DNA of 64,000 nt from Escherichia coli (GTDB taxonomy: Bacteria; Pseudomonadota; Gammaproteobacteria; Enterobacterales; Enterobacteriaceae): NCBI RefSeq assembly GCF_036507355.1, contig NZ_AP027877.1. One strand, 5' to 3'. The translations under genes were made by a program, and so were the position numbers. The first letter of the stretch is position 1; every line of letters starts with the position of its first letter. The notes under the pieces were generated by a model, which was not told where the DNA came from, did no database searches, and was given only the letters and a program-made list of their open reading frames with translations. Below are positions 3,850 through 27,481 of the stretch, in pieces.

Positions 3850-5559
3850 TTATTGCACTGGCTCCGTCGATGTAACTTCACCGCTGGAAACGATGCCAGC
3901 ATTCATGGTTTGAGTCACTTGCTGCTTTGCGGCGTTCACGGCATGCAATTGCCCGCTAACCGTAGGTTTCAACGGGACATTGGCCTGAATATCGCCACTG
4001 GCGGTAAGCTGAATATTGCCGTCGCCAGTCAACGGTAATTCAGGCCATCCCCACTGTTGCAAAATATTCACCGGCACACCGCGTCCATTCAGGCTGATAT
4101 GGGTCTGACGTTGTGGCGTTTGTGAAACACTGGCGGTGGCTTCCAGAATGCCTTTTTCAGTAAATGCACTCAGTTCGCTGATATTCACCGTGCTGCTGTT
4201 GGCGGTTAGCGCCAGCGATGGACGGCGGACATCAACACGATTAAACGTCGCGGCGGCGGCATTCAGATTCGCCGAGCCACTCCAGACGCCCCATTTATGA
4301 TCGGTAACCAGCGTCAGGTTGGCACCGTAACCATCGAGCGCGGTGAGCTGCCACGGGAAGTCAGGGTCGATATCAATGATCAGATTGCGGCTGGCGCTAA
4401 ATCTCTTCAGTTGCAGGCTGTTTAACCAACCGGGTGTCGTTTCCATCCACAACTGTTGCCAGTTTTTCGGCAAGGTATATTCCAGCCCGGCAATTGCCGC
4501 ATCATCAAGGATCAACGTTTTCCCGTCACGCAGCCAGTTCCCTGACGTTCTGACCATACCCCCTTCCCAGCGGCTGGTGAACTGGCGCAGCGCTACGCCC
4601 TGCGGGGAAAATTCCGCGTTTATAATCGGGTCAAATAAATGCAGCGAACCATAAATGAACTCGCTGGCGTTCATCGACAGTTTGCCTTCTTGTGTCTGCC
4701 AGTCATCTTTACTGAAGGTCATGTTGCGCAAGCTGAGATCGAGGTCGGTCACCGCCCAGTCCGGACCTTGCAGACGAGCATCGATCACTTCCAGGCGACC
4801 AATCTGCAACGACGGGACAGAGCGTAATGGCGCAAAGAAGTCGGTTAGCGATTTTTCGCTTTGTAGACGGATATCCGCCATGCGCAGATTTTCCACTTGC
4901 CAGCTGCCGTCGGCGTTACGCTGCGCGTTTCCGGTTAATGTCCCGCGCGCGATGTCGGCACCCAGGTTAGTCAGCGTAACGCGATCGTTATCAATACTGC
5001 CTTCAATCAGTACATTGGTGGCAGGAATATCATTGAGCGAAAGCGATCCGGCACTAAACTGAATCTGCGCCTTCGTACCCAGCACTTTACCGGCTTCTGG
5101 TGACCACGGAACCACGCCGCCATTTACCCGCTGCGCGCTCAGTTTCCATTCGCTATTCGGGCTATTAAACGCCATATCACGCAGTTGCAGACGATCGGCT
5201 TTGAACGGTAGCGGCGCGGTCTGGTCGGTGAGATTCAGCGTTCCGTTTTCCAGCAGGATGGTATCGACATGGCGTGGTTCGGTCAGTTGCCGACTGCTTA
5301 GCGCAATGTCGACACTTTTTGCCACCAGGGTCGCGGGCTGGCCATCACGGCCAAACGTGACGTTCTCCAGCACGATATGAGATGGCGCGGAAAAACGGTG
5401 ATCCATCGCCCCGAAGGCCAGATGATAGTCGCTATTCTCGGAAACCCATGCGCTGATATGTTCTGCTCCCCAGCGGGTTTGCAGAAGAAAATAGAGGCCA
5501 GCGATCACCACTAACAGAGCGATGAGAATGTAGAGAAGCAGCTTCCCAATAAATTTCAT
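3850..5559 (-). CDS. yicH: AsmA-family outer membrane assembly protein
   Basis: ORF with ATG at 5559 (MKFIGKLLLYILIALLVV... N-terminal TM anchor); length ~569 aa. Confidence 0.85.
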   Translation of the reverse strand: MKFIGKLLLYILIALLVVIAGLYFLLQTRWGAEHISAWVSENSDYHLAFGAMDHRFSAPSHIVLENVTFGRDGQPATLVAKSVDIALSSRQLTEPRHVDTILLENGTLNLTDQTAPLPFKADRLQLRDMAFNSPNSEWKLSAQRVNGGVVPWSPEAGKVLGTKAQIQFSAGSLSLNDIPATNVLIEGSIDNDRVTLTNLGADIARGTLTGNAQRNADGSWQVENLRMADIRLQSEKSLTDFFAPLRSVPSLQIGRLEVIDARLQGPDWAVTDLDLSLRNMTFSKDDWQTQEGKLSMNASEFIYGSLHLFDPIINAEFSPQGVALRQFTSRWEGGMVRTSGNWLRDGKTLILDDAAIAGLEYTLPKNWQQLWMETTPGWLNSLQLKRFSASRNLIIDIDPDFPWQLTALDGYGANLTLVTDHKWGVWSGSANLNAAAATFNRVDVRRPSLALTANSSTVNISELSAFTEKGILEATASVSQTPQRQTHISLNGRGVPVNILQQWGWPELPLTGDGNIQLTASGDIQANVPLKPTVSGQLHAVNAAKQQVTQTMNAGIVSSGEVTSTEPVQ

Positions 5560-5679
5560 GGTCTTCCATCCCGTGAAATGCACATAAGGGAGTTATGCAC
5601 GATTTACGCGCAATCCTCAAGGCGGGAATGGTGAAAGAGGTGAGACTGCGGCGGTAATTATCTTACCGCCGCCAGTGAA

Positions 5680-7071
5680 TTACTGTTTTTCTGGTGGGAA
5701 AATCAGATTCAGCACGATGGCAGTAATACCGCCCGCGGCGATCCCGGAGGAGAGCAGGTTTTTCAGCCATTCAGGGGCAAACTGCAAAATCAGCGGCTGC
5801 TGAGACACGCCCAGACCAACCGCCAGCGACAGGGCGATAATCAGAATCGCCCGACGGTTCAGCGGCTCACGAGAAACGATACGCACACCGGAGGCGGCGA
5901 TGGTGCCAAACATTACAAGCGTTGCGCCGCCCAGAACCGGTTCTGGAATGTGTTGTACAAAACCGCTCACTGCCGGGAACAGACCCAGCACGATCAACAT
6001 CAGCGCGACGACAAAACCGACATAGCGGCTGGCAACACCGGTCAACTGGATCACTCCGTTGTTCTGCCCGAAGCAGGAGTTCGGGAAGGTGTTAAACACC
6101 GCCGAAACAAACGAGTTCAGGCCGTTTGCCAGCACGCCGCCTTTCAGGCGTTTCATGTACAGCGGACCGGACACTGGCTGTTCGGAAACGTCAGAGGTCG
6201 CCGTGATATCGCCAATGGTTTCCAGCGAAGTGATCATAAAGACCAGCATCAGCGGCAGCAGCAGACTCCATTCAATGCCAAGACCGTAATAGAGCGGCGT
6301 TGGCACCATAATCAGTTCTTGCGTCATCGGTTCGTTGCTTTCTGGCAACATGCCCATAAACCACGCCAGCGCATATCCGGCCGCCATCGCAATCACCAGT
6401 GAGGCCACGCGTAAGTAAGGGTTACGTTGACGGTTAAGCAGGATAATTAAGGCTAAGACCACGCCTGCCAGCAGCAGATTTTTCGGTGCGCCGAAGGTGT
6501 TATCGCTCATGGCTGCGTAACCGCCGCCAATTGAGGTCAGCCCCACCTGAATTAGCGACAGGCCGATAATCATCACCACAACGCCAGAAACCAGCGGCGT
6601 AATAATGCGGCGCGCCAGATGCAGAACGCGGGAGATCACCATCTCGGTGCAACTTGCCAGCATCAACGTGCCGAACAAAGCCGCCATCATGGTAGGAACA
6701 TCAGCACCACCGGTTTTCAGCGCGGTACCGCCCATAATCAGCGGGGCAACAAAGTTGAAGCTGGTGCCCTGAATAGACAACAGCCCGGAGCCAACCGGAC
6801 CCCAGGCCTTAATTTGAATAATCGATGCCACACCGGAGGCAAACAGCGACATACTAATAATGTGTTGCGTGTCTTGTGCCGGTAAACCCAGCGCCTGGCA
6901 GATTAATAGCGCTGGCGTGATCACCGCAACGAACATCGCCAGCAAATGCTGACAGGCGGCAAACAGGGTTTGAGGAAGCGGCGGACGATCTTCAAGACGG
7001 TAAATCAGTTCGCTGTTTTGAGTCTGCGCAACCGGTTGCGCATTTTCTGACTCGAGGGTGGAAACAGACAT
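5680..7071 (-). CDS. xanP: xanthine permease (NCS2 family)
   Basis: ATG at 7071 ([10 protein letters not shown]...); polytopic membrane protein with NCS2-like motifs; between yicH and gltS. Confidence 0.85.
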
Positions 7072-7349
7072 CGAAAACAATCCCGTGGTAGCAAAGCGGG
7101 CATTTTAGCTGACCGAAAGAGAAAAGCAAACGTTTGCCACATCCTCATCTAAATATTTAAATGAGATAAATGCACTTTTTTATATAACTTTTGGTATTTT
7201 TCTGCTTAAAATCCATGCCATTTGTTCATTAACAGCTGAGAATTTGACCCAGGAAAGCATAACTCGATACCCGTCATAGTTCATAAGTTGCCACTGCGCG
7301 ATGAAGTATGACGAGTATGAAAGAGTGATGCGGATACAAAGGAGTAACT

Positions 7350-8555
7350 ATGTTTCATCTCGATACTTTAGCAACGCTTGTTGCCGCAACGCTGACGTTG
7401 CTGCTCGGGCGTAAGTTGGTCCATTCCGTCTCCTTTTTGAAGAAATACACCATACCGGAACCTGTTGCGGGTGGTTTGTTGGTGGCGCTGGCGCTACTGG
7501 TACTTAAAAAAAGCATGGGCTGGGAAGTCAACTTTGATATGTCCCTGCGCGATCCGTTAATGCTGGCATTCTTCGCCACCATTGGCCTGAACGCCAACAT
7601 TGCCAGTTTGCGTGCCGGTGGGCGTGTGGTTGGCATCTTCCTGATTGTGGTTGTTGGTCTGTTGGTGATGCAAAATGCCATTGGCATTGGTATGGCTAGC
7701 CTGTTAGGGCTTGATCCGCTGATGGGGCTGTTGGCCGGTTCTATTACGCTTTCCGGCGGTCACGGTACGGGAGCTGCATGGAGTAAATTGTTCATTGAAC
7801 GTTATGGCTTCACCAATGCGACAGAAGTGGCGATGGCCTGTGCAACGTTCGGTCTGGTGCTGGGCGGCTTGATTGGCGGTCCGGTGGCGCGCTATCTGGT
7901 GAAACACTCCACCACGCCGAACGGTATTCCGGATGACCAGGAAGTCCCGACGGCGTTTGAAAAGCCGGATGTGGGCCGCATGATCACCTCGCTGGTGCTG
8001 ATTGAAACTATCGCGCTGATTGCTATCTGCCTGACGGTGGGGAAAATTGTTGCGCAACTTTTGGCTGGCACTGCTTTTGAACTGCCGACCTTCGTCTGTG
8101 TACTGTTTGTTGGCGTGATTCTGAGCAACGGTCTGTCAATGATGGGCTTTTACCGCGTCTTTGAGCGTGCGGTATCCGTGCTGGGTAACGTAAGCCTGTC
8201 GTTGTTCCTGGCGATGGCGCTGATGGGGCTGAAACTGTGGGAGCTGGCTTCGCTGGCGCTGCCGATGCTGGCGATTCTGGTGGTACAGACCATCTTCATG
8301 GCGTTGTATGCCATCTTCGTTACCTGGCGCATGATGGGCAAAAACTACGATGCGGCAGTGCTGGCTGCGGGTCACTGTGGTTTTGGTCTCGGTGCAACGC
8401 CAACGGCAATCGCCAACATGCAGGCGATCACTGAACGCTTTGGCCCGTCGCACATGGCGTTTTTGGTGGTGCCGATGGTCGGTGCGTTCTTTATCGATAT
8501 CGTCAATGCGCTGGTGATTAAGCTGTATTTGATGTTGCCGATTTTTGCCGGTTAA
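7350..8555 (+). CDS. gltS: sodium/glutamate symporter
   Basis: 401-aa hydrophobic ORF, recalled GltS sequence context. Confidence 0.9.
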   Translation: MFHLDTLATLVAATLTLLLGRKLVHSVSFLKKYTIPEPVAGGLLVALALLVLKKSMGWEVNFDMSLRDPLMLAFFATIGLNANIASLRAGGRVVGIFLIVVVGLLVMQNAIGIGMASLLGLDPLMGLLAGSITLSGGHGTGAAWSKLFIERYGFTNATEVAMACATFGLVLGGLIGGPVARYLVKHSTTPNGIPDDQEVPTAFEKPDVGRMITSLVLIETIALIAICLTVGKIVAQLLAGTAFELPTFVCVLFVGVILSNGLSMMGFYRVFERAVSVLGNVSLSLFLAMALMGLKLWELASLALPMLAILVVQTIFMALYAIFVTWRMMGKNYDAAVLAAGHCGFGLGATPTAIANMQAITERFGPSHMAFLVVPMVGAFFIDIVNALVIKLYLMLPIFAG

Positions 8556-8730
8556 CCGATGAAGCGGCGGTAGAAGTGCCGCCGCAACAAAGACAAATGC
8601 CTGATACGCTTCGCTTATCAAGGCTGCGCATTGATTCACAATTTATTGAATTTATAAGTTTTTGTAGGACGAAGCACATCCGGCAGGAAGGTAGGGTAAC
8701 CTGAAATGGCGGTCTTCTCACCGCCGCCTT

Positions 8731-10812
8731 TTACGCATTCGAGTAACGTTCCGTCTCCGGCATCCAGCGTTCTATCAGGGCTTTTGCCTGTTGTGGGTAA
8801 CGTTCGTGAATATGGCGTGCCAGGCGCTGAACTTCCGGGATCATCGCCTGATCGCGCAGTAAATCCGCCACTTTAAATTCAGCATTACCCGTCTGACGAG
8901 TGCCTAACAATTCGCCAGGGCCGCGAATCTCCAGATCTTTTTGTGCAATCACAAACCCGTCGTTGCTGTCGCGCAGCACTTGCAGGCGAATTTGCGCCGT
9001 TTTAGAAAGCGGCGTTTTATAGAGCAGCACGCAGTGAGAAGCCACCGCGCCACGACCTACACGCCCACGTAGCTGGTGCAACTGCGCCAGACCCAGACGC
9101 TCCGGGTTTTCGATAATCATCAGACTGGCGTTAGGCACATCAACGCCGACTTCAATAACGGTTGTGGCAACCAGCAGGTGTAGCTCACCTTGTTTAAACG
9201 ACGCCATCACCGCCTGTTTCTCGGCAGGTTTCATCCGCCCGTGTACCAGGCCAACATTCAACTCTGGTAGCGCCAGTTTCAACTCTTCCCAGATAGCTTC
9301 CGCCGCCTGCGCTTCCAGTAACTCTGACTCTTCAATCAACGTACAAACCCAGTACGCCTGACGACCTTCAGTCATGCAGGCGTGGCGCACGCGGTCAATG
9401 ATGTCGGTACGGCGAGTATCAGGAATAGCGACCGTAGTCACTGGCGTGCGGCCTGGCGGCAGTTCATCAATGACCGAGGTGTCGAGATCAGCATACGCAG
9501 TCATCGCCAGCGTGCGGGGGATCGGCGTGGCGGTCATGATCAACTGATGCGGATGGAAGCCTTGCTGCTGGCCTTTCTCCCACAATGCCAGACGCTGATG
9601 CACGCCAAAGCGATGCTGTTCGTCGATAATCACCAGCGCCAGGCCGTTAAACTGCACCTGTTCCTGGAAGATGGCGTGTGTTCCGACAATCATCTGCACC
9701 TGACCGCTGGCGATGGCTTCCTGCTGAGACAGTCGCGCTTTACCTTTCTGCTTACCGGCGAGCCAGCCCACTTCGATACCGAGCGGTGCAAACCAGTTGC
9801 GGAAGTTATTAGCGTGCTGTTCGGCGAGTAATTCGGTTGGTGCCATCAATGCCACCTGTTTGCCGTGGGCAATCGCACGCAGCGCGGCGAGGGCAGCGAC
9901 CAGCGTTTTACCGGAACCTACATCGCCCTGTACCAGGCGCATCATCGGCACATTCAGCGCCATATCGCGCTCGATCTCCGCCACCACGCGAGCCTGAGCG
10001 CCCGTTGGCTTGAACGGTAAGGCGGCAAGAAGTTTATTTTTCAGCGTGTCATTGGCGCTCAGCGGCTGGGCATGGAAACGTTGCGCTCCGGCGCGTAAGG
10101 CTAACATGCTGAGGTTATGCGCCAGCAGTTCTTCCAGAATCAGACGACGTTGCGCCGGATGCTGCCCGGTTTCCAGATCGCTAAGTTGCAGCGTCGGCGG
10201 CGGGCGGTGCAAAGTGCGCAACGCTTCCGGTAGCGTCATCATTCCTTGTGACAGTTCCGGCGGCAGGAGTTCTTCAATGGCGCAGGTGTCGAGCAGATCC
10301 AGCGCCTGGTCGGTTAATTTACGCAGCGTGGCCTGCTTTACGCCTTCGGTTGTTGGATAAACCGGCGTGAGCGTTTCCTGCAACTCTGGCGTACTGAGAT
10401 CGCCCTGCACGCGGTATTCCGGGTGGATCATCTCCGCACCATATTTACCGCGCTTTGCTTCTCCATAGGCCAGCACGCGGCGGCCCGTCGCCAGGCTATT
10501 TTTCATTGCCGCGTTGAAGTTGAAAAAGCGCATGGTGAGAATGCCGGAACCGTCGCTGATCTGGCAGGTCATCATCCGCCGACCGCCGAAGGAGATATTG
10601 CAGTTCAGCACTTCGCCTTCCACCGTGGCATAAACGCCCGGTAGTAGTTCTCCGATGGGGTAGAGATGGGTGCGATCTTCGTAGCGCAGGGGAAGGTGTA
10701 AGAGTAGATCCTGCACAGTCTGCAGGTTGATTTTCGCCAGCTTGTTACTAAGCGCTGCGCCAACGCCCGTTAGGGAACTGAGCGGGACAGCATCTAACAG
10801 GCGACCTTTCAT
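8731..10812 (-). CDS. recG: ATP-dependent DNA helicase RecG
   Basis: ATG at 10812 (MKGRLLDAVPLSSL...); Walker A GDVGSGKT, DEQH box, helicase motifs visible. Confidence 0.95.
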   Translation of the reverse strand: MKGRLLDAVPLSSLTGVGAALSNKLAKINLQTVQDLLLHLPLRYEDRTHLYPIGELLPGVYATVEGEVLNCNISFGGRRMMTCQISDGSGILTMRFFNFNAAMKNSLATGRRVLAYGEAKRGKYGAEMIHPEYRVQGDLSTPELQETLTPVYPTTEGVKQATLRKLTDQALDLLDTCAIEELLPPELSQGMMTLPEALRTLHRPPPTLQLSDLETGQHPAQRRLILEELLAHNLSMLALRAGAQRFHAQPLSANDTLKNKLLAALPFKPTGAQARVVAEIERDMALNVPMMRLVQGDVGSGKTLVAALAALRAIAHGKQVALMAPTELLAEQHANNFRNWFAPLGIEVGWLAGKQKGKARLSQQEAIASGQVQMIVGTHAIFQEQVQFNGLALVIIDEQHRFGVHQRLALWEKGQQQGFHPHQLIMTATPIPRTLAMTAYADLDTSVIDELPPGRTPVTTVAIPDTRRTDIIDRVRHACMTEGRQAYWVCTLIEESELLEAQAAEAIWEELKLALPELNVGLVHGRMKPAEKQAVMASFKQGELHLLVATTVIEVGVDVPNASLMIIENPERLGLAQLHQLRGRVGRGAVASHCVLLYKTPLSKTAQIRLQVLRDSNDGFVIAQKDLEIRGPGELLGTRQTGNAEFKVADLLRDQAMIPEVQRLARHIHERYPQQAKALIERWMPETERYSNA

Positions 10813-23398: not shown

Positions 23399-23860
23399 TT
23401 ACTCAGTATGATCAGCGGCATCCTTTGGGGTGCCGTTTTGCTTTATCCGGTCATTAATTTCCTCCAGCAAGTCTTCAGCCTTAACCAATTCTCTGATTGC
23501 CTTTGCTGTCCGCGCTGCCTCTGCTTCAGCTTTGTCGGCTGATTTTTTGGCTAACTGTTCGCGCCTTTCGGCTCTGGCTTGAGCATCCAACTCCCAATCG
23601 CATGAAAGGTGGCGGCCATCTAGATACCTGCTTACGATAACGCCTCTTTCATCCGTATCCTCATGAATGAACCACCAGCCATGCTTCTCGTTCATTAATT
23701 GCTGCAATGGTGAGCGATAGTGTTTACCTGCTATTTGAAGTAATTCGTCTTCACAAACAGGGCCATCAACCAGCGCGCGCCAGATTCGATATGCCTTTGT
23801 GCCTGGCTTAGGGATAGTGTGCAACGGCGCAGTAATCAGGATTTTCTCCCAGTTCTTCAT
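23399..23860 (-). CDS. hypothetical protein (153 aa) between alpA and primase
   Basis: ORF MKNWEKILITAPLHTIPKPGTKAYRIWRALVDG...; ATG overlaps alpA stop (ATGA); charged coiled-coil-like C-terminus. Confidence 0.55.
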   Translation of the reverse strand: MKNWEKILITAPLHTIPKPGTKAYRIWRALVDGPVCEDELLQIAGKHYRSPLQQLMNEKHGWWFIHEDTDERGVIVSRYLDGRHLSCDWELDAQARAERREQLAKKSADKAEAEAARTAKAIRELVKAEDLLEEINDRIKQNGTPKDAADHTE

Positions 23861-24030
23861 TTTTTGGCCTCCAGCCATGAGTTGATTTCTGTTGAAGACC
23901 ATGCTGTAACGCGTTCAGAAAGTTTTATGGGTTTTGGTATCTTCCCGGTTCTTGCCCAGCGCCAAAGAGAAGAAACGCTAATTCCCAGTTGGTTAGCCAG
24001 GTCTTTAGGGCGTAAATATTGCGTTTTCAT
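23857..24030 (-). CDS. alpA: AlpA-family transcriptional regulator
   Basis: 57-aa ORF MKTQYLRPKDLANQLGISVSSLWRWARTGKIPKPIKL... (HTH, AlpA/Xis-like); GAGG SD. Confidence 0.75.
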   Translation of the reverse strand: MKTQYLRPKDLANQLGISVSSLWRWARTGKIPKPIKLSERVTAWSSTEINSWLEAKK

Positions 24031-24112: not shown

Positions 24113-24150
24113 CAAAGTAGGTCTTCACTTTCAAAGTAGGTCTTCACTTT
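24113..24150. promoter_or_regulatory. tandem 19-bp direct repeat upstream of alpA (candidate operator)
   Basis: caaagtaggtcttcacttt repeated twice back-to-back, directly seen; overlaps stop of upstream 283-aa gene. Confidence 0.5.
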
Positions 24151-24995
24151 TGTGAGAATGTTTCAGGGAACCATTCTTGTAGTTGCTGCCTAAGTTTTTG
24201 GCATCTAGAATCATCTTTAATATTGATATCTATACCTTCCTTTGCGGCATACCTTTTTATCGCTTCAATTGTTGCGTCCAGAGTGATGGAGCCGCGTACC
24301 CCCTTACATTCTTCAATCTCATGCTTCAGAACGTATTCAGCTACCTTGCGGCGATTGGCGTGTATCTGAGCGTATCGGATAGTTCGCCCGTCGGTATTGT
24401 CACCAATCGTTTTTAGTGCCTGTTTTGCCTGTGCCGCTTCATAAACTCGCTCAATGTCTTCGGCAGACAGGAACGTTTCATTCATAGAAATAACAAGCGA
24501 GTTATCACCAGTAAAAGTGATGTCCAAACTCCCAACCCCATCAGGACGTTCGTCTATAGCCTCCAGATAATTATTAATGGTGTCCTTGTTTAACCTTATC
24601 GGCTCATTTGGCCTTATAGGAAAAGATGACGGTATGGCCCAGTAACCAGAAGCAATGCCAGTACACCAGAAACAATCTTCCTCAGTGGAAATATGGAAAT
24701 CGGTGCTGACTTTTGAAAGCTCAAGCCCTAACGGGTGAGGTCGATTTTTCGTGGCGCATCCCATATATAGCGCCTCGGCAATTTCTTTCGCATTGTTTTG
24801 GATTAACTCCCGGGAAAGAAAGCCTCCAAATGAACAAGGCTCGCCATTGAGGAGAGCATACAGATGGATCCGGCGCTCTTGATGGTAAGCAACCAACGTA
24901 GTAGGACTTACACCCAACAGCTCGCTTGCCTCAGCTATAGATACTGGCCCATCAGGTCTAACCCTTTTCTTTTTTTCCCAGATTGAAGCGCGCAT
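24144..24995 (-). CDS. hypothetical HTH-domain protein (283 aa)
   Basis: N-terminal helix-turn-helix-like segment SIAEASELLGVSPTTLVAYHQ; remainder unrecognised; sits between int and alpA. Confidence 0.55.
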   Translation of the reverse strand: MRASIWEKKKRVRPDGPVSIAEASELLGVSPTTLVAYHQERRIHLYALLNGEPCSFGGFLSRELIQNNAKEIAEALYMGCATKNRPHPLGLELSKVSTDFHISTEEDCFWCTGIASGYWAIPSSFPIRPNEPIRLNKDTINNYLEAIDERPDGVGSLDITFTGDNSLVISMNETFLSAEDIERVYEAAQAKQALKTIGDNTDGRTIRYAQIHANRRKVAEYVLKHEIEECKGVRGSITLDATIEAIKRYAAKEGIDINIKDDSRCQKLRQQLQEWFPETFSQK

Positions 24996-25049: not shown

Positions 25050-25158
25050 TGTCCCGTCCTGTCCCGTCTTTTGTCCCGGTTTTGTCCCATAACCATTCTT
25101 GTAACCAGCTGTATTTATTGAGTCTTTACAAAACGGGACAAACGGGACAGATGGGACA
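25050..25158. repeat. second iteron cluster (4x TGTCCC, ~45-bp spacer, 3x GGGACA); crr-like site or operator
   Basis: Hexamers at 25050, 25060, 25072, 25083, 25135, 25144, 25153; same hexamer and architecture as 20556..20665, ~4.5 kb away. Confidence 0.55.
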
Positions 25159-25181: not shown

Positions 25182-26441
25182 CTATCTGGCTTGCCTCAGT
25201 GGTGTAACGTTGTACTCTTCGCCCCGTTCAAGCGCTTCCATCAGGTTGCCCAGCATGGCCAGCGCTTCCCGCCGTTCGTTTAAATATTGGTGACGGTTGT
25301 AGATGCCTTCGACGCCTTTAATGCGGTGATTAAGGCAACGTTCGGCAACGATAGGATCAACGCCCAGCGCTCCTAAGTGGGTTCGGGCGGTGCGCCTAAG
25401 GTCGTGAATAGTGAAGTTAGGTACGCCCGGCATTGCCTGCTTAACCTTCGCCAGCGCAACGGGCAGGGTGCTTTCCTGAATGTGGGGGATCATGCGGTGC
25501 TGTTGTTTTCGCGCAGGTAGTACCCATTTGCTGTTACAGGAAAGAAGGCGCAATTCTTCAAGCCATTCGATAGCCTGCTTTGGCAGCGGAATATCAATCC
25601 CGTCGCCCGTCTTTGTACGCTCGCCCGGCAAGTACCAAATGCCATTGGCTAAATCGAACTCGCTCCAGCGTGCGGCGCATAGCTCCATCTTTCTCACGCA
25701 AGTGACCAGCAGCAGCTTTATCGTCAATTCGTTCTCGCGGCTAAAGCCTTTCGCCATTCGCATGGCTTCAAAGAGTTGAACCAGTTCCGGCCTGGTTAAC
25801 CATCGTTCTCGAGATGTTTCCTTACCGCCCGCGTCACTTATATCAAAGGCGGCTGCGGGGTTAACCTCAATCATTCCCAGCTTGATCGCATGGTCAAAGA
25901 TGCGGCGTACCCATCGCAGGACGTCATTAGCAACGGATGGCGCACCACGTTTTAAGATGGCCTGAAGCAAGGCATCAATATCTCGGGGTTTGACGTCCTT
26001 AACCTTTTTCTGACCTATGCGAGGATTAATGTCTTTCGCCAGACGACGGCGGAGGATGTCGGGGTGTTTCCATGTACCCAGTACTTTCTTCTTAAAATAG
26101 TCTTCAGCTACTTCGGACACTGTTTTGTCATGCTGGTCGGCTTCCAACTGGGCTTTTAATGCGGCTTTTCGCTCCTGCTTCTCACCGGCAACGTCATACC
26201 CCAGGGAAACACGAGCAGCCAGCTCTCGGGTGATCTCCCGGGCTTTAGCCAGTGAGATAACGCCATACGCGCCAATTGTCATAACACGAGGCTTGCCAGC
26301 GAAGCGGTAGCGGAAACGCCATGATGGGGACGTGTCAGTAGTGCGATAGCGCAAATATAAACCGTTACCGTCCGATTTACCCTCGAACCTTGTTCCGGCC
26401 TTTATCCAGGCCTTGATCTGAATGTCTGTTAGCTTGCCCAT
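25182..26441 (-). CDS. int: tyrosine site-specific integrase (P4-type)
   Basis: 419-aa ORF; N-terminal arm-binding-like domain (GLYLRYR), C-terminal catalytic residues (HDLRRTARTHL ... GIYNRHQY); adjacent to attR. Confidence 0.85.
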   Translation of the reverse strand: MGKLTDIQIKAWIKAGTRFEGKSDGNGLYLRYRTTDTSPSWRFRYRFAGKPRVMTIGAYGVISLAKAREITRELAARVSLGYDVAGEKQERKAALKAQLEADQHDKTVSEVAEDYFKKKVLGTWKHPDILRRRLAKDINPRIGQKKVKDVKPRDIDALLQAILKRGAPSVANDVLRWVRRIFDHAIKLGMIEVNPAAAFDISDAGGKETSRERWLTRPELVQLFEAMRMAKGFSRENELTIKLLLVTCVRKMELCAARWSEFDLANGIWYLPGERTKTGDGIDIPLPKQAIEWLEELRLLSCNSKWVLPARKQQHRMIPHIQESTLPVALAKVKQAMPGVPNFTIHDLRRTARTHLGALGVDPIVAERCLNHRIKGVEGIYNRHQYLNERREALAMLGNLMEALERGEEYNVTPLRQAR

Positions 26442-26617: not shown

Positions 26618-27481
26618 CTACTCAATATTCTGAATCTGCTCGCGCATCTGCTCAATCAACACTTTCAGCTCGATGGCGGAGTTTGTCACTTCGGCGTTGA
26701 TAGATTTCGACGCAAGAGTGTTCGACTCGCGGTTGAACTCCTGCATCATAAAGTCCAGACGACGACCAACGGCTTCTTTTTTCTTCAGAATGTTGTAGGT
26801 CTCTTTGACATGCGCTTCGAGGCGGTCCAGTTCTTCGGCAACGTCAATTCGTTGTGCCAGCAGAACCAACTCCTGCTCCAGACGGTTGTTTTCCAACTGC
26901 ACCTGAGCATCTTCCAGCTTCGCGACCAAGCGTTCACGCTGCCATTGCAGGATTTCCGGCATATGGGAGCGGACTTTGACCACTTCGGCGGTGACGCCTT
27001 CCAGACGCTGCTCAATCAACGCTTTCAGCGCCTGACCTTCGGTTTCGCGAGCGATGATAAAGTCATCCAGGGTGCCATCCAACGCTGCGAGAATTTCAGC
27101 GGCAATCGCGTCGAGATCTTGCTCCTGGGCCGCCATCACGCCCGGCCAGCGTAGAATATCAACCGGGTTGATTTCCCCTTCGTCACTCTGCATTTTTACC
27201 CAGTTCGCGGCAGTTACCAGCTGTTTAGCCAGTTTTTCGTTGAGGATCAGCTCACCTTGCGCGCTAACATCTGGCTCATAGCGCAGAGTACATTCCACTT
27301 TACCGCGCGTCAGGCGAGAACGAATACGCTCACGAACGACAGGTTCAAGGCTACGGAACTGCTCCGGCAGACGAAAGTAAGTTTCCAGATAACGCTGGTT
27401 TACCGAGCGCATTTCCCAGGTTGCGCTCCCCCATTCACCCTTGATTTCACGCCGGGCGTAGGCGGTCATACTGCGGATCAT
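26618..27481 (-). CDS. yicC: YicC-family stress-induced protein
   Basis: 287-aa ORF MIRSMTAYARREIKGEWGSATWEMRSVNQRYLE... ending ...EQIQNIE. Confidence 0.9.
   Translation of the reverse strand: MIRSMTAYARREIKGEWGSATWEMRSVNQRYLETYFRLPEQFRSLEPVVRERIRSRLTRGKVECTLRYEPDVSAQGELILNEKLAKQLVTAANWVKMQSDEGEINPVDILRWPGVMAAQEQDLDAIAAEILAALDGTLDDFIIARETEGQALKALIEQRLEGVTAEVVKVRSHMPEILQWQRERLVAKLEDAQVQLENNRLEQELVLLAQRIDVAEELDRLEAHVKETYNILKKKEAVGRRLDFMMQEFNRESNTLASKSINAEVTNSAIELKVLIEQMREQIQNIE
26622..26638. other. attR core (tcaatAttctgaatctg) within the last codons of yicC
   Basis: 17-bp direct repeat of 18487..18503 with one mismatch. Confidence 0.7.

Follow-up and report, generated by a model that had tools for sequence, protein, structure and literature searches.

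PICMIs and other minimal satellites make do with only about six genes. In the satellite P4, the Cnr protein is encoded just upstream of alpha and modulates the binding of alpha to ori/crr-type repeats, and epsilon derepresses P2. PICMIs have the layout int-iolg-alpA-up1-prim, where alpA, the gene in the slot behind it and prim belong to a single early unit (Barcia-Cruz et al. 2024, PMC10803314). Nine unrelated families have been described in the slot between alpA and prim, and up1 could be deleted from PICMI115 without loss of transfer (PMC10803314). In PICMI115, AlpA functions as an excisionase and not as a transcription factor, and a further factor is required for excision, iolg, whose gene lies beside int (PMC10803314). 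The PICMI model further includes a DUF3987/DUF5906 primase, and integration immediately downstream of fis is considered a hallmark (PMC10803314).

Here we analyse a gene for a 153-aa protein in a 64,000-nt stretch of an Escherichia coli genome (contig NZ_AP027877.1), referred to below as the window. As in PICMIs, int, alpA and a primase gene are co-localised in one small element of the window, with one small slot gene. We are highly confident that this slot gene is real and that it belongs to a family of winged-helix proteins linked to the alpA-rep slot. Our best explanation as a whole, to which we assign a probability of roughly 40%, is that it encodes a dimeric winged-helix protein which is co-produced with AlpA and tunes the expression of the replicase.

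The gene, its operon and its island

The preliminary description of this locus had given the coordinates of the open reading frame exactly, with no mention of the strand, which is minus (Table 1). It had also proposed translational coupling to alpA, and here our analysis agrees. The ATG of the 153-aa gene (23860-23858) overlaps the TGA of alpA (23859-23857) in an ATGA junction, which reads 'tcat' on the plus strand (23857-23860); a GGAGG motif lies 7 nt upstream of the start, and a short overlap or gap is kept in distant genera. The product of the upstream frame matches Pfam Phage_AlpA with E=1.3e-10. The cautious suggestion of co-expression with the replication module holds as well; the gene forms one co-oriented string with the primase and helicase genes. 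PGAP places the start of the gene 18 nt further upstream, at an ATG at position 23878, which yields a 159-aa form. The 153-aa start is better supported, since the extension has no Shine-Dalgarno sequence and is unconserved among homologues. The gene is carried by 17 of 5,426 complete E. coli genomes and is annotated by PGAP in every one of these 17. Strains PI24, ET490 and J6 are examples of carriers of the island.

The island that carries the gene spans about 8.1 kb between dinD and yicC, within the 3' end of yicC, and is bounded by an 11-nt exact repeat, TTCTGAATCTG. All of its genes lie on the minus strand, in the order integrase, 283-aa gene, alpA, 153-aa gene, Toprim primase, DUF927 helicase and four small cargo ORFs, the last of which returned no family matches. 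The regulatory and replication genes are flanked by two iteron clusters at a distance of 4.5 kb from each other; in both, the iterons form an inverted array on either side of an AT-rich spacer of about 45 nt. No ORF of the island matched a capsid, terminase or packaging family in Pfam, PHROGs or PADLOC, with small unannotated ORFs remaining. An Rfam scan of the island returned only a spurious miRNA match on the iterons, a scan for promoters and terminators gave no enrichment over shuffles, and no k-mer shared upstream of alpA among 12 loci rose above shuffled controls.

Table 1. Features of the yicC island in the window, with copies of the hairpin at other loci
Feature	Position	Strand	Remarks
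153-aa gene	23399-23860	minus (23860→23399)	462 nt = 153 codons + stop
Shine-Dalgarno GGAGG of the 153-aa gene	23868-23872	minus	7 nt 5' of the ATG; within the alpA 3' end
AlpA-type HTH gene	23857-24030	minus	57 aa; likely extent, following the PGAP annotation in E. coli J6
Toprim_3 primase gene	22462-23331	minus	289 aa; next gene downstream of the 153-aa gene
DUF927 (Cch/SaPI-Rep-like) helicase gene	20759-22465	minus	after the primase gene
Gene of 283-aa protein	24144-24995	minus	weak N-terminal MerR/HTH_17-like HTH; position of the PICMI 'iolg/icg' gene
Tyrosine integrase gene	25182-26441	minus	with arm-binding domain
Left att core copy	18493-18503		TTCTGAATCTG; in a decayed 41-nt duplicate of the yicC 3' end (18463-18503)
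Right att core copy	26628-26638		in the last codons of yicC
Iteron cluster, crr-like	20557-20666		7 GGGACA/TGTCCC; after the helicase gene
Iteron cluster, ori-like	25050-25158		7 GGGACA/TGTCCC; between int and the 283-aa gene
Inverted repeat/hairpin	23353-23386	minus	GCUGGCGG - 18-nt loop with AAGUUUGGCGA - CCGCCAGC
Hairpin copy, L002	8476-8509		
Hairpin copy, L006	8480-8512		
Hairpin copy, L013	7444-7479		
Hairpin copy, L014	919-951		
Hairpin copy, L019	2929-2961		
Hairpin copies, other loci			L020, L021, L267, L271-L273

Some further observations concern the surroundings of these genes. A perfect 19-nt tandem duplication at 24113-24150 (two copies of AAAGTGAAGACCTACTTTG, minus strand) spans the stop of the 283-aa gene and lies about 85-120 nt 5' of the alpA start. 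It recurs, slightly diverged, in ET745 and L015, which have the same alpA type, and it could serve the alpA promoter as an operator. Next to the island, dinD (17439-18273) looks fragmented into at least two ORFs (17439-17672 and 17989-18273), and the intact dinD of E. coli J6 gives no alignment to a stretch of 212 nt within it (18017-18228). A comparison with L001 shows a mosaic cargo end of the island (19589-20348): the window, like MARGA_3, has a signal-peptide-like 151-aa protein at 20042-20497, and at that position J6 and Atlantibacter have a TM2-domain protein together with a hypothetical protein.

A rare protein family and its predicted fold

Comparative evidence shows that the ORF is a true gene and that purifying selection acts on it. 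Atlantibacter hermannii has an orthologue with 77% identity and a dN/dS of 0.22, and a further dN/dS value is 0.20. An exhaustive HMMER search, with a 5-sequence profile against 1.84 billion cluster representatives, found 107 related clusters at E<=1e-3 and 67 at E<=1e-10, nearly all of them 130-165 aa long and aligned across most of their length. A word-indexed protein search had returned only 4 and then 12 relatives, missing the bulk of the family that the exhaustive search recovered. In the resulting alignment of 96 sequences (A2), 15 positions are at least 90% conserved, namely P17, R49, Q53, L55, W63, I65, L80, D81, R83, H84, D92, A95, R96, S107 and R117, and the family can be recognised by the signature motifs IPKxGT, RSPLQxL and LDxRHLSGDxxxDxxARxER. 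That the ORF could be a chance frame or a mis-annotated overlap without a functional product, for which the absence of database annotation is the sole support, has practically no probability left. It is already refuted by the conservation data, that is the dN/dS of about 0.2 and the 107 homologous clusters with conserved motifs, and it is further opposed by the Shine-Dalgarno sequence, the PGAP annotation in all 17 carrier genomes and the confident AlphaFold2 model described below.

The protein had been called unknown, and this is how it stands after searches of Pfam, NCBIfam, PHROGs, PADLOC and PDB sequences, in which it found no match. More specifically, the query matched neither NCBIfam nor Pfam DUF5375, none of the 96 members had a match in Pfam, PHROGs or PADLOC (with Pfam HTH families at 0 of 96), and PDB sequence searches with two profiles gave only noise. 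Homologues were likewise missing from 50,697 phage records and 72,556 plasmids searched with tblastn, and a profile from a 24-sequence subset found 4 genome loci and none in IMG/VR. We are dealing with a rare but widespread, undescribed gammaproteobacterial family of proteins of about 140 aa, which is set beside the PICMI slot families by position only. Its members have a median pI of 8.9; the E. coli protein has a near-neutral pI of 6.1 and an acidic wing, EDTDERG.

The C-termini of the family fall into recognisable subfamilies. Ends of the form ...(Y/F)xxLGxAAND(E/S).. are found in 23 of 109 members (e.g., P0014, P0040 and P0043), and enterobacterial members carry KQNGTPKDAA. The ssrA tag has the sequence AANDENYALAA, of which the first residues are the SspB-binding part. 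The LGxAAND subfamily end resembles the start of this tag, possibly by coincidence.

AlphaFold2, run on the 96-sequence alignment, gave a model with a pLDDT of 95.1 and a pTM of 0.77. It consists of helices at residues 22-32, 37-44 and 49-55, strands at 65-69 and 75-80, and then a single helix of about 53 residues (89-141), in keeping with the helical C-terminal half that had been read from the sequence beforehand. The modelled head (residues ~20-80) has the make-up of a winged helix-turn-helix, with three helices and a beta-hairpin wing. The best Foldseek matches in PDB and BFVD were almost only winged-helix proteins (MarR, ArsR, HxlR, TFE and phage proteins labelled 'HTH domain'), none of them significant, with best E-values of 0.035 in PDB (TM ~0.3) and 0.0055 in BFVD. 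In the winged helix-turn-helix fold, the third helix is the usual recognition helix. It is this third helix of the model that carries the nearly invariant RSPLQxL motif, and, judging from the model, we are probably looking at a small DNA-binding protein. The long helix shows heptad periodicity, with conserved small or hydrophobic residues at a spacing of 3-4 between positions 103 and 135, and we read it as a putative dimerising coiled coil.

The slot, its occupants and the hairpin

An important aspect of the family is its genomic position, which we examined in 13 independent contexts: E. coli, two Atlantibacter variants, an enterobacterial metagenome contig, two Marinomonas, Alteromonas, Pseudoalteromonas, a Shewanella MAG and four further metagenome contigs. 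In all 13 the family gene directly follows a gene for an HTH protein of 56-82 aa and precedes the replication gene of the element. The junction with the upstream gene ranges from -4 to +9 nt: it is an ATGA overlap in 7 of the 13, and in the others it lies between an overlap of 1 nt and a gap of no more than 9 nt. The upstream product matched Pfam Phage_AlpA or HTH_17 in five contexts and gave a sub-threshold match in L017; that of L014 was recognised through a tblastn match to the AlpA of the window and that of L015 by eye, L011, L018 and L021 yielded no AlpA-type domain, and L012 was left out of domain typing. Further upstream, where the locus reaches that far, lie an integrase gene and a gene for a protein of about 165-290 aa. 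The replicases downstream belong to four or five types (Toprim+DUF927, a Toprim-AAA_25 fusion, AAA_25, VapE-type and YagK/YfjJ-type Rep). The family thus holds a fixed position in integrase islands of 4-8 kb with the PICMI/P4-satellite layout int - (iolg-like) - alpA - X - rep. L017 offers an element of only 4.1 kb (4596-8753) at the 3' end of fis, with the att core published for PICMIs, TACGGCATGAAC, on both sides. It contains only int, an int-overlapping gene, alpA, a member of the 153-aa family and a YagK/YfjJ-type Rep gene.

The position is fixed and its occupant is exchangeable. The sister islands of E. coli MARGA_3 and ET745 (L009 and L010) encode Toprim and DUF927 proteins that are 99-100% identical to those of the window, and the slot of both is filled by an unrelated 107-aa gene (6014-6337 in either locus), which overlaps alpA by 11 nt. 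The 153-aa family has no significant homology to this 107-aa protein, and homology of the latter to Cnr was rejected as well. Judged by eye, the 107-aa protein resembles a winged helix. The islands with the 107-aa gene retain the last 15 codons of the 153-aa gene, which places the breakpoint of the swap inside the 3' end of the 153-aa gene. Furthermore, alpA type A is paired with either the 153-aa or the 107-aa gene and so is type B. Reassortment of the slot gene is independent of the type of alpA and of the region upstream of alpA, and also of replicase type. Such free reassortment fits a self-contained cassette; equally, it can point to a target outside the island.

These exchanges bear directly on the question of whether the protein works in excision or integration, as a cofactor of AlpA and integrase in the excisive intasome or another accessory of recombination directionality. 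The ATGA coupling, kept across genera, implies co-production with alpA, the PICMI115 AlpA is an excisionase and excision there needs an extra protein (PMC10803314). However, that extra factor is iolg and not the slot gene, and the deletion of up1 left transfer unchanged (PMC10803314). In the islands compared here, moreover, the slot gene was swapped without a change in the att site or in the integrase, which is 97% identical between the window and L009, and either slot gene pairs with both alpA types. We therefore regard a role in excision as distinctly unlikely.

The same comparison can be made for the iterons. An origin-binding or initiator accessory, which would bind the GGGACA iterons and recruit primase and helicase, might be expected from a winged-helix protein encoded directly upstream of a primase, from the two iteron clusters with their AT-rich spacers, whose distance of about 4.5 kb recalls ori and crr of P4, and from the analogy with P4 Cnr, which modulates the binding of alpha to its repeats. 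Yet the same iterons are present in L009 and L010, which have no 153-aa gene, and they are absent from family-bearing islands with other replicases. The iterons do not track the gene, and an iteron-binding initiator role is ruled out by this comparison of islands; an accessory function at the origin is accordingly given a very low probability. The iterons are probably binding sites of the helicase or initiator, because they are kept in all yicC-site islands whatever the slot gene. A specific replicase partner is also argued against, as the family pairs with Toprim+DUF927, Toprim-AAA_25, AAA_25, VapE-type and YagK/YfjJ-type genes.

A candidate target for the protein can be found on the other side of the gene. 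Between its stop codon and the ribosome-binding site of the primase lies an inverted repeat, or hairpin, with the conserved loop motif A(A/C)(G/T)TTTGGCGA, which also stands behind family members in E. coli, Atlantibacter, Alteromonas, Pseudoalteromonas and several metagenome elements (Table 1). Among 11 distinct sequences, 3 of which were retrieved with a pattern that requires pairing, 8 stem positions are paired in 100% of cases and 5 of the 8 pairs have changed on both sides. None of 500 shuffles was as good as the observed pairing, and no shifted register was either. In L021 the stem sequence is entirely different and the loop motif is retained. This covariation is compatible with an RNA hairpin and with a palindromic DNA operator alike. 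The hairpin matched no Rfam family, and its strict pattern is absent from IMG/VR. That pattern occurs at 19 metagenome loci, about 6 of them genuine, and loose patterns found only chance matches in IMG/VR. The pairing of protein and hairpin is not exclusive, given that the hairpin also follows the 107-aa gene (L009 and L010) and an HTH_39 winged-helix gene (L271 and L273) and is missing behind family members in L011, L012, L017 and L018. Elements with a YagK/YfjJ-type Rep can have a repeated motif, CACCGGTTTGTGACCCTTC, between slot gene and rep in place of the hairpin, with three copies in L018 (~1950-2070) and one related copy in L017 (~7500-7530).

How, then, might the protein act? In the explanation that we favour, it would be co-produced with AlpA when the island is switched on, form a dimer through its long helix and bind nucleic acid through the RSPLQxL recognition helix. 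The likeliest target would be a conserved cis element of the operon, for which the hairpin is the candidate, and binding would set the amount or timing of replicase expression. This would amount to control of copy number or of the early operon, with a function like that of P4 Cnr or of the Cop proteins of plasmids. Regulation of the replicase through the hairpin in particular is a tentative inference, which we consider possible though doubtful. Against it stand the exchangeable slot, the non-exclusive hairpin, the dispensability of up1 in PICMI115 and the near-neutral pI of the E. coli protein.

The main rival is a somewhat unlikely one in our estimate: an early factor directed at a helper phage or the host, acting like P4 epsilon or in interference or hijack, with no role in replication or excision of the island. 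It would account well for a slot that behaves as an exchangeable cassette, with an unrelated 107-aa gene in sister islands and free reassortment between slot gene and alpA type, and for the nine unrelated slot families of PICMIs together with an up1 that is dispensable for transfer (PMC10803314). The near-invariant recognition helix and the subfamily motifs at the C-terminus (LGxAAND and KQNGTPKDAA) can be counted in its favour too, as such conservation suggests one conserved target across different islands and hosts. On the other hand, none of the 96 members matches a PADLOC model, and no homologue is found in the 50,697 phage records, the 72,556 plasmids or IMG/VR. The strict gene order beside the replicase, the conserved cis element adjoining the gene and the classical DNA-binding fold also speak against a target of this kind.

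Returning to control of the replicase, one could go further and propose that the slot proteins (153-aa, 107-aa and HTH_39) and the hairpin together constitute a portable module for the control of replicase expression. Such a module would be common to a superfamily of minimal integrase-AlpA islands across Gammaproteobacteria, independent of the replicase downstream. In it the hairpin, in the form of RNA or of a DNA cruciform or operator, would be bound by the winged-helix protein, which would gate replication after AlpA-driven excision. We think this proposal unlikely. If control of the replicase or of copy number were true, it would explain the timing of replication in such tiny elements once they are induced; at present, the gene adds one more conserved hypothetical protein to a known kind of element. 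With the hairpin there is a concrete hypothesis open to testing in E. coli, and the same holds for the function of the slot as such, given that this host is genetically tractable and that 17 complete genomes carry the gene.

Comparison with known regulators and satellites

At the level of fold, the closest known proteins are regulators of the MarR/ArsR/HxlR type, which have the same class of head, and the architecture of a head plus a long dimerisation helix is also MerR-like. The resemblance to the MarR/ArsR type stays at the fold level, with no significant match by profile or structure, and to our knowledge the junction motif LDxRHLSGD...ARxER is not a feature of MarR/ArsR/HxlR-type families. 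A second comparison is offered by Pfam HTH_39 (PF14090), a winged-helix protein of 95-99 aa that occupies the same slot in the metagenome elements L271 and L273. These have the order int - X - AlpA-like - HTH_39 - hairpin - YagK/YfjJ Rep, in which the same hairpin follows the slot gene. Unlike HTH_39, which it does not match, the 153-aa family has an additional long C-terminal helix.

With regard to P4, the preliminary description would have been refuted had the protein turned out to be a known conserved accessory protein of P4-like satellites, which it did not: hhalign probabilities against ORF151 and ORF106/Cnr were below 1%. Homology to these two proteins was rejected at 0.3% and 0.1%, respectively (0.08-0.33%), and with a BLASTP E-value of 13. 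No ORF of the window island matches psu, delta, sid, epsilon or an alpha-type primase, which sets it apart from P4. What the two have in common is arrangement. P4 also encodes small proteins directly upstream of the satellite primase in its early operon, between vis/epsilon and alpha, and their sizes (151 and 106 aa, ORF151 and ORF106) can be compared with the 153 and 107 aa of the two slot proteins. The ori and crr of P4 are likewise about 4.5 kb apart and flank the early operon, like the two GGGACA clusters of the island.

With PICMIs the island shares the operon layout, in spite of several differences. The window island is integrated at yicC rather than fis, carries Toprim_3 and DUF927 genes instead of a DUF3987/DUF5906 primase and has no known helper phage. 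Like PICMIs, it is of minimal size (8.1 kb) and without a match to genes for capsid remodelling or packaging. Integration at fis is a feature only of the related element L017, which is PICMI-like with a different replicase and is smaller than both the PICMI115 prototype (6.1 kb) and the Vibrionaceae average (6.7 kb). Overall, the 153-aa gene occupies a slot that is known from PICMIs, in an element of a known kind, and one such occupant now has a predicted fold, a family profile, a range beyond Vibrionaceae and a candidate cis target.
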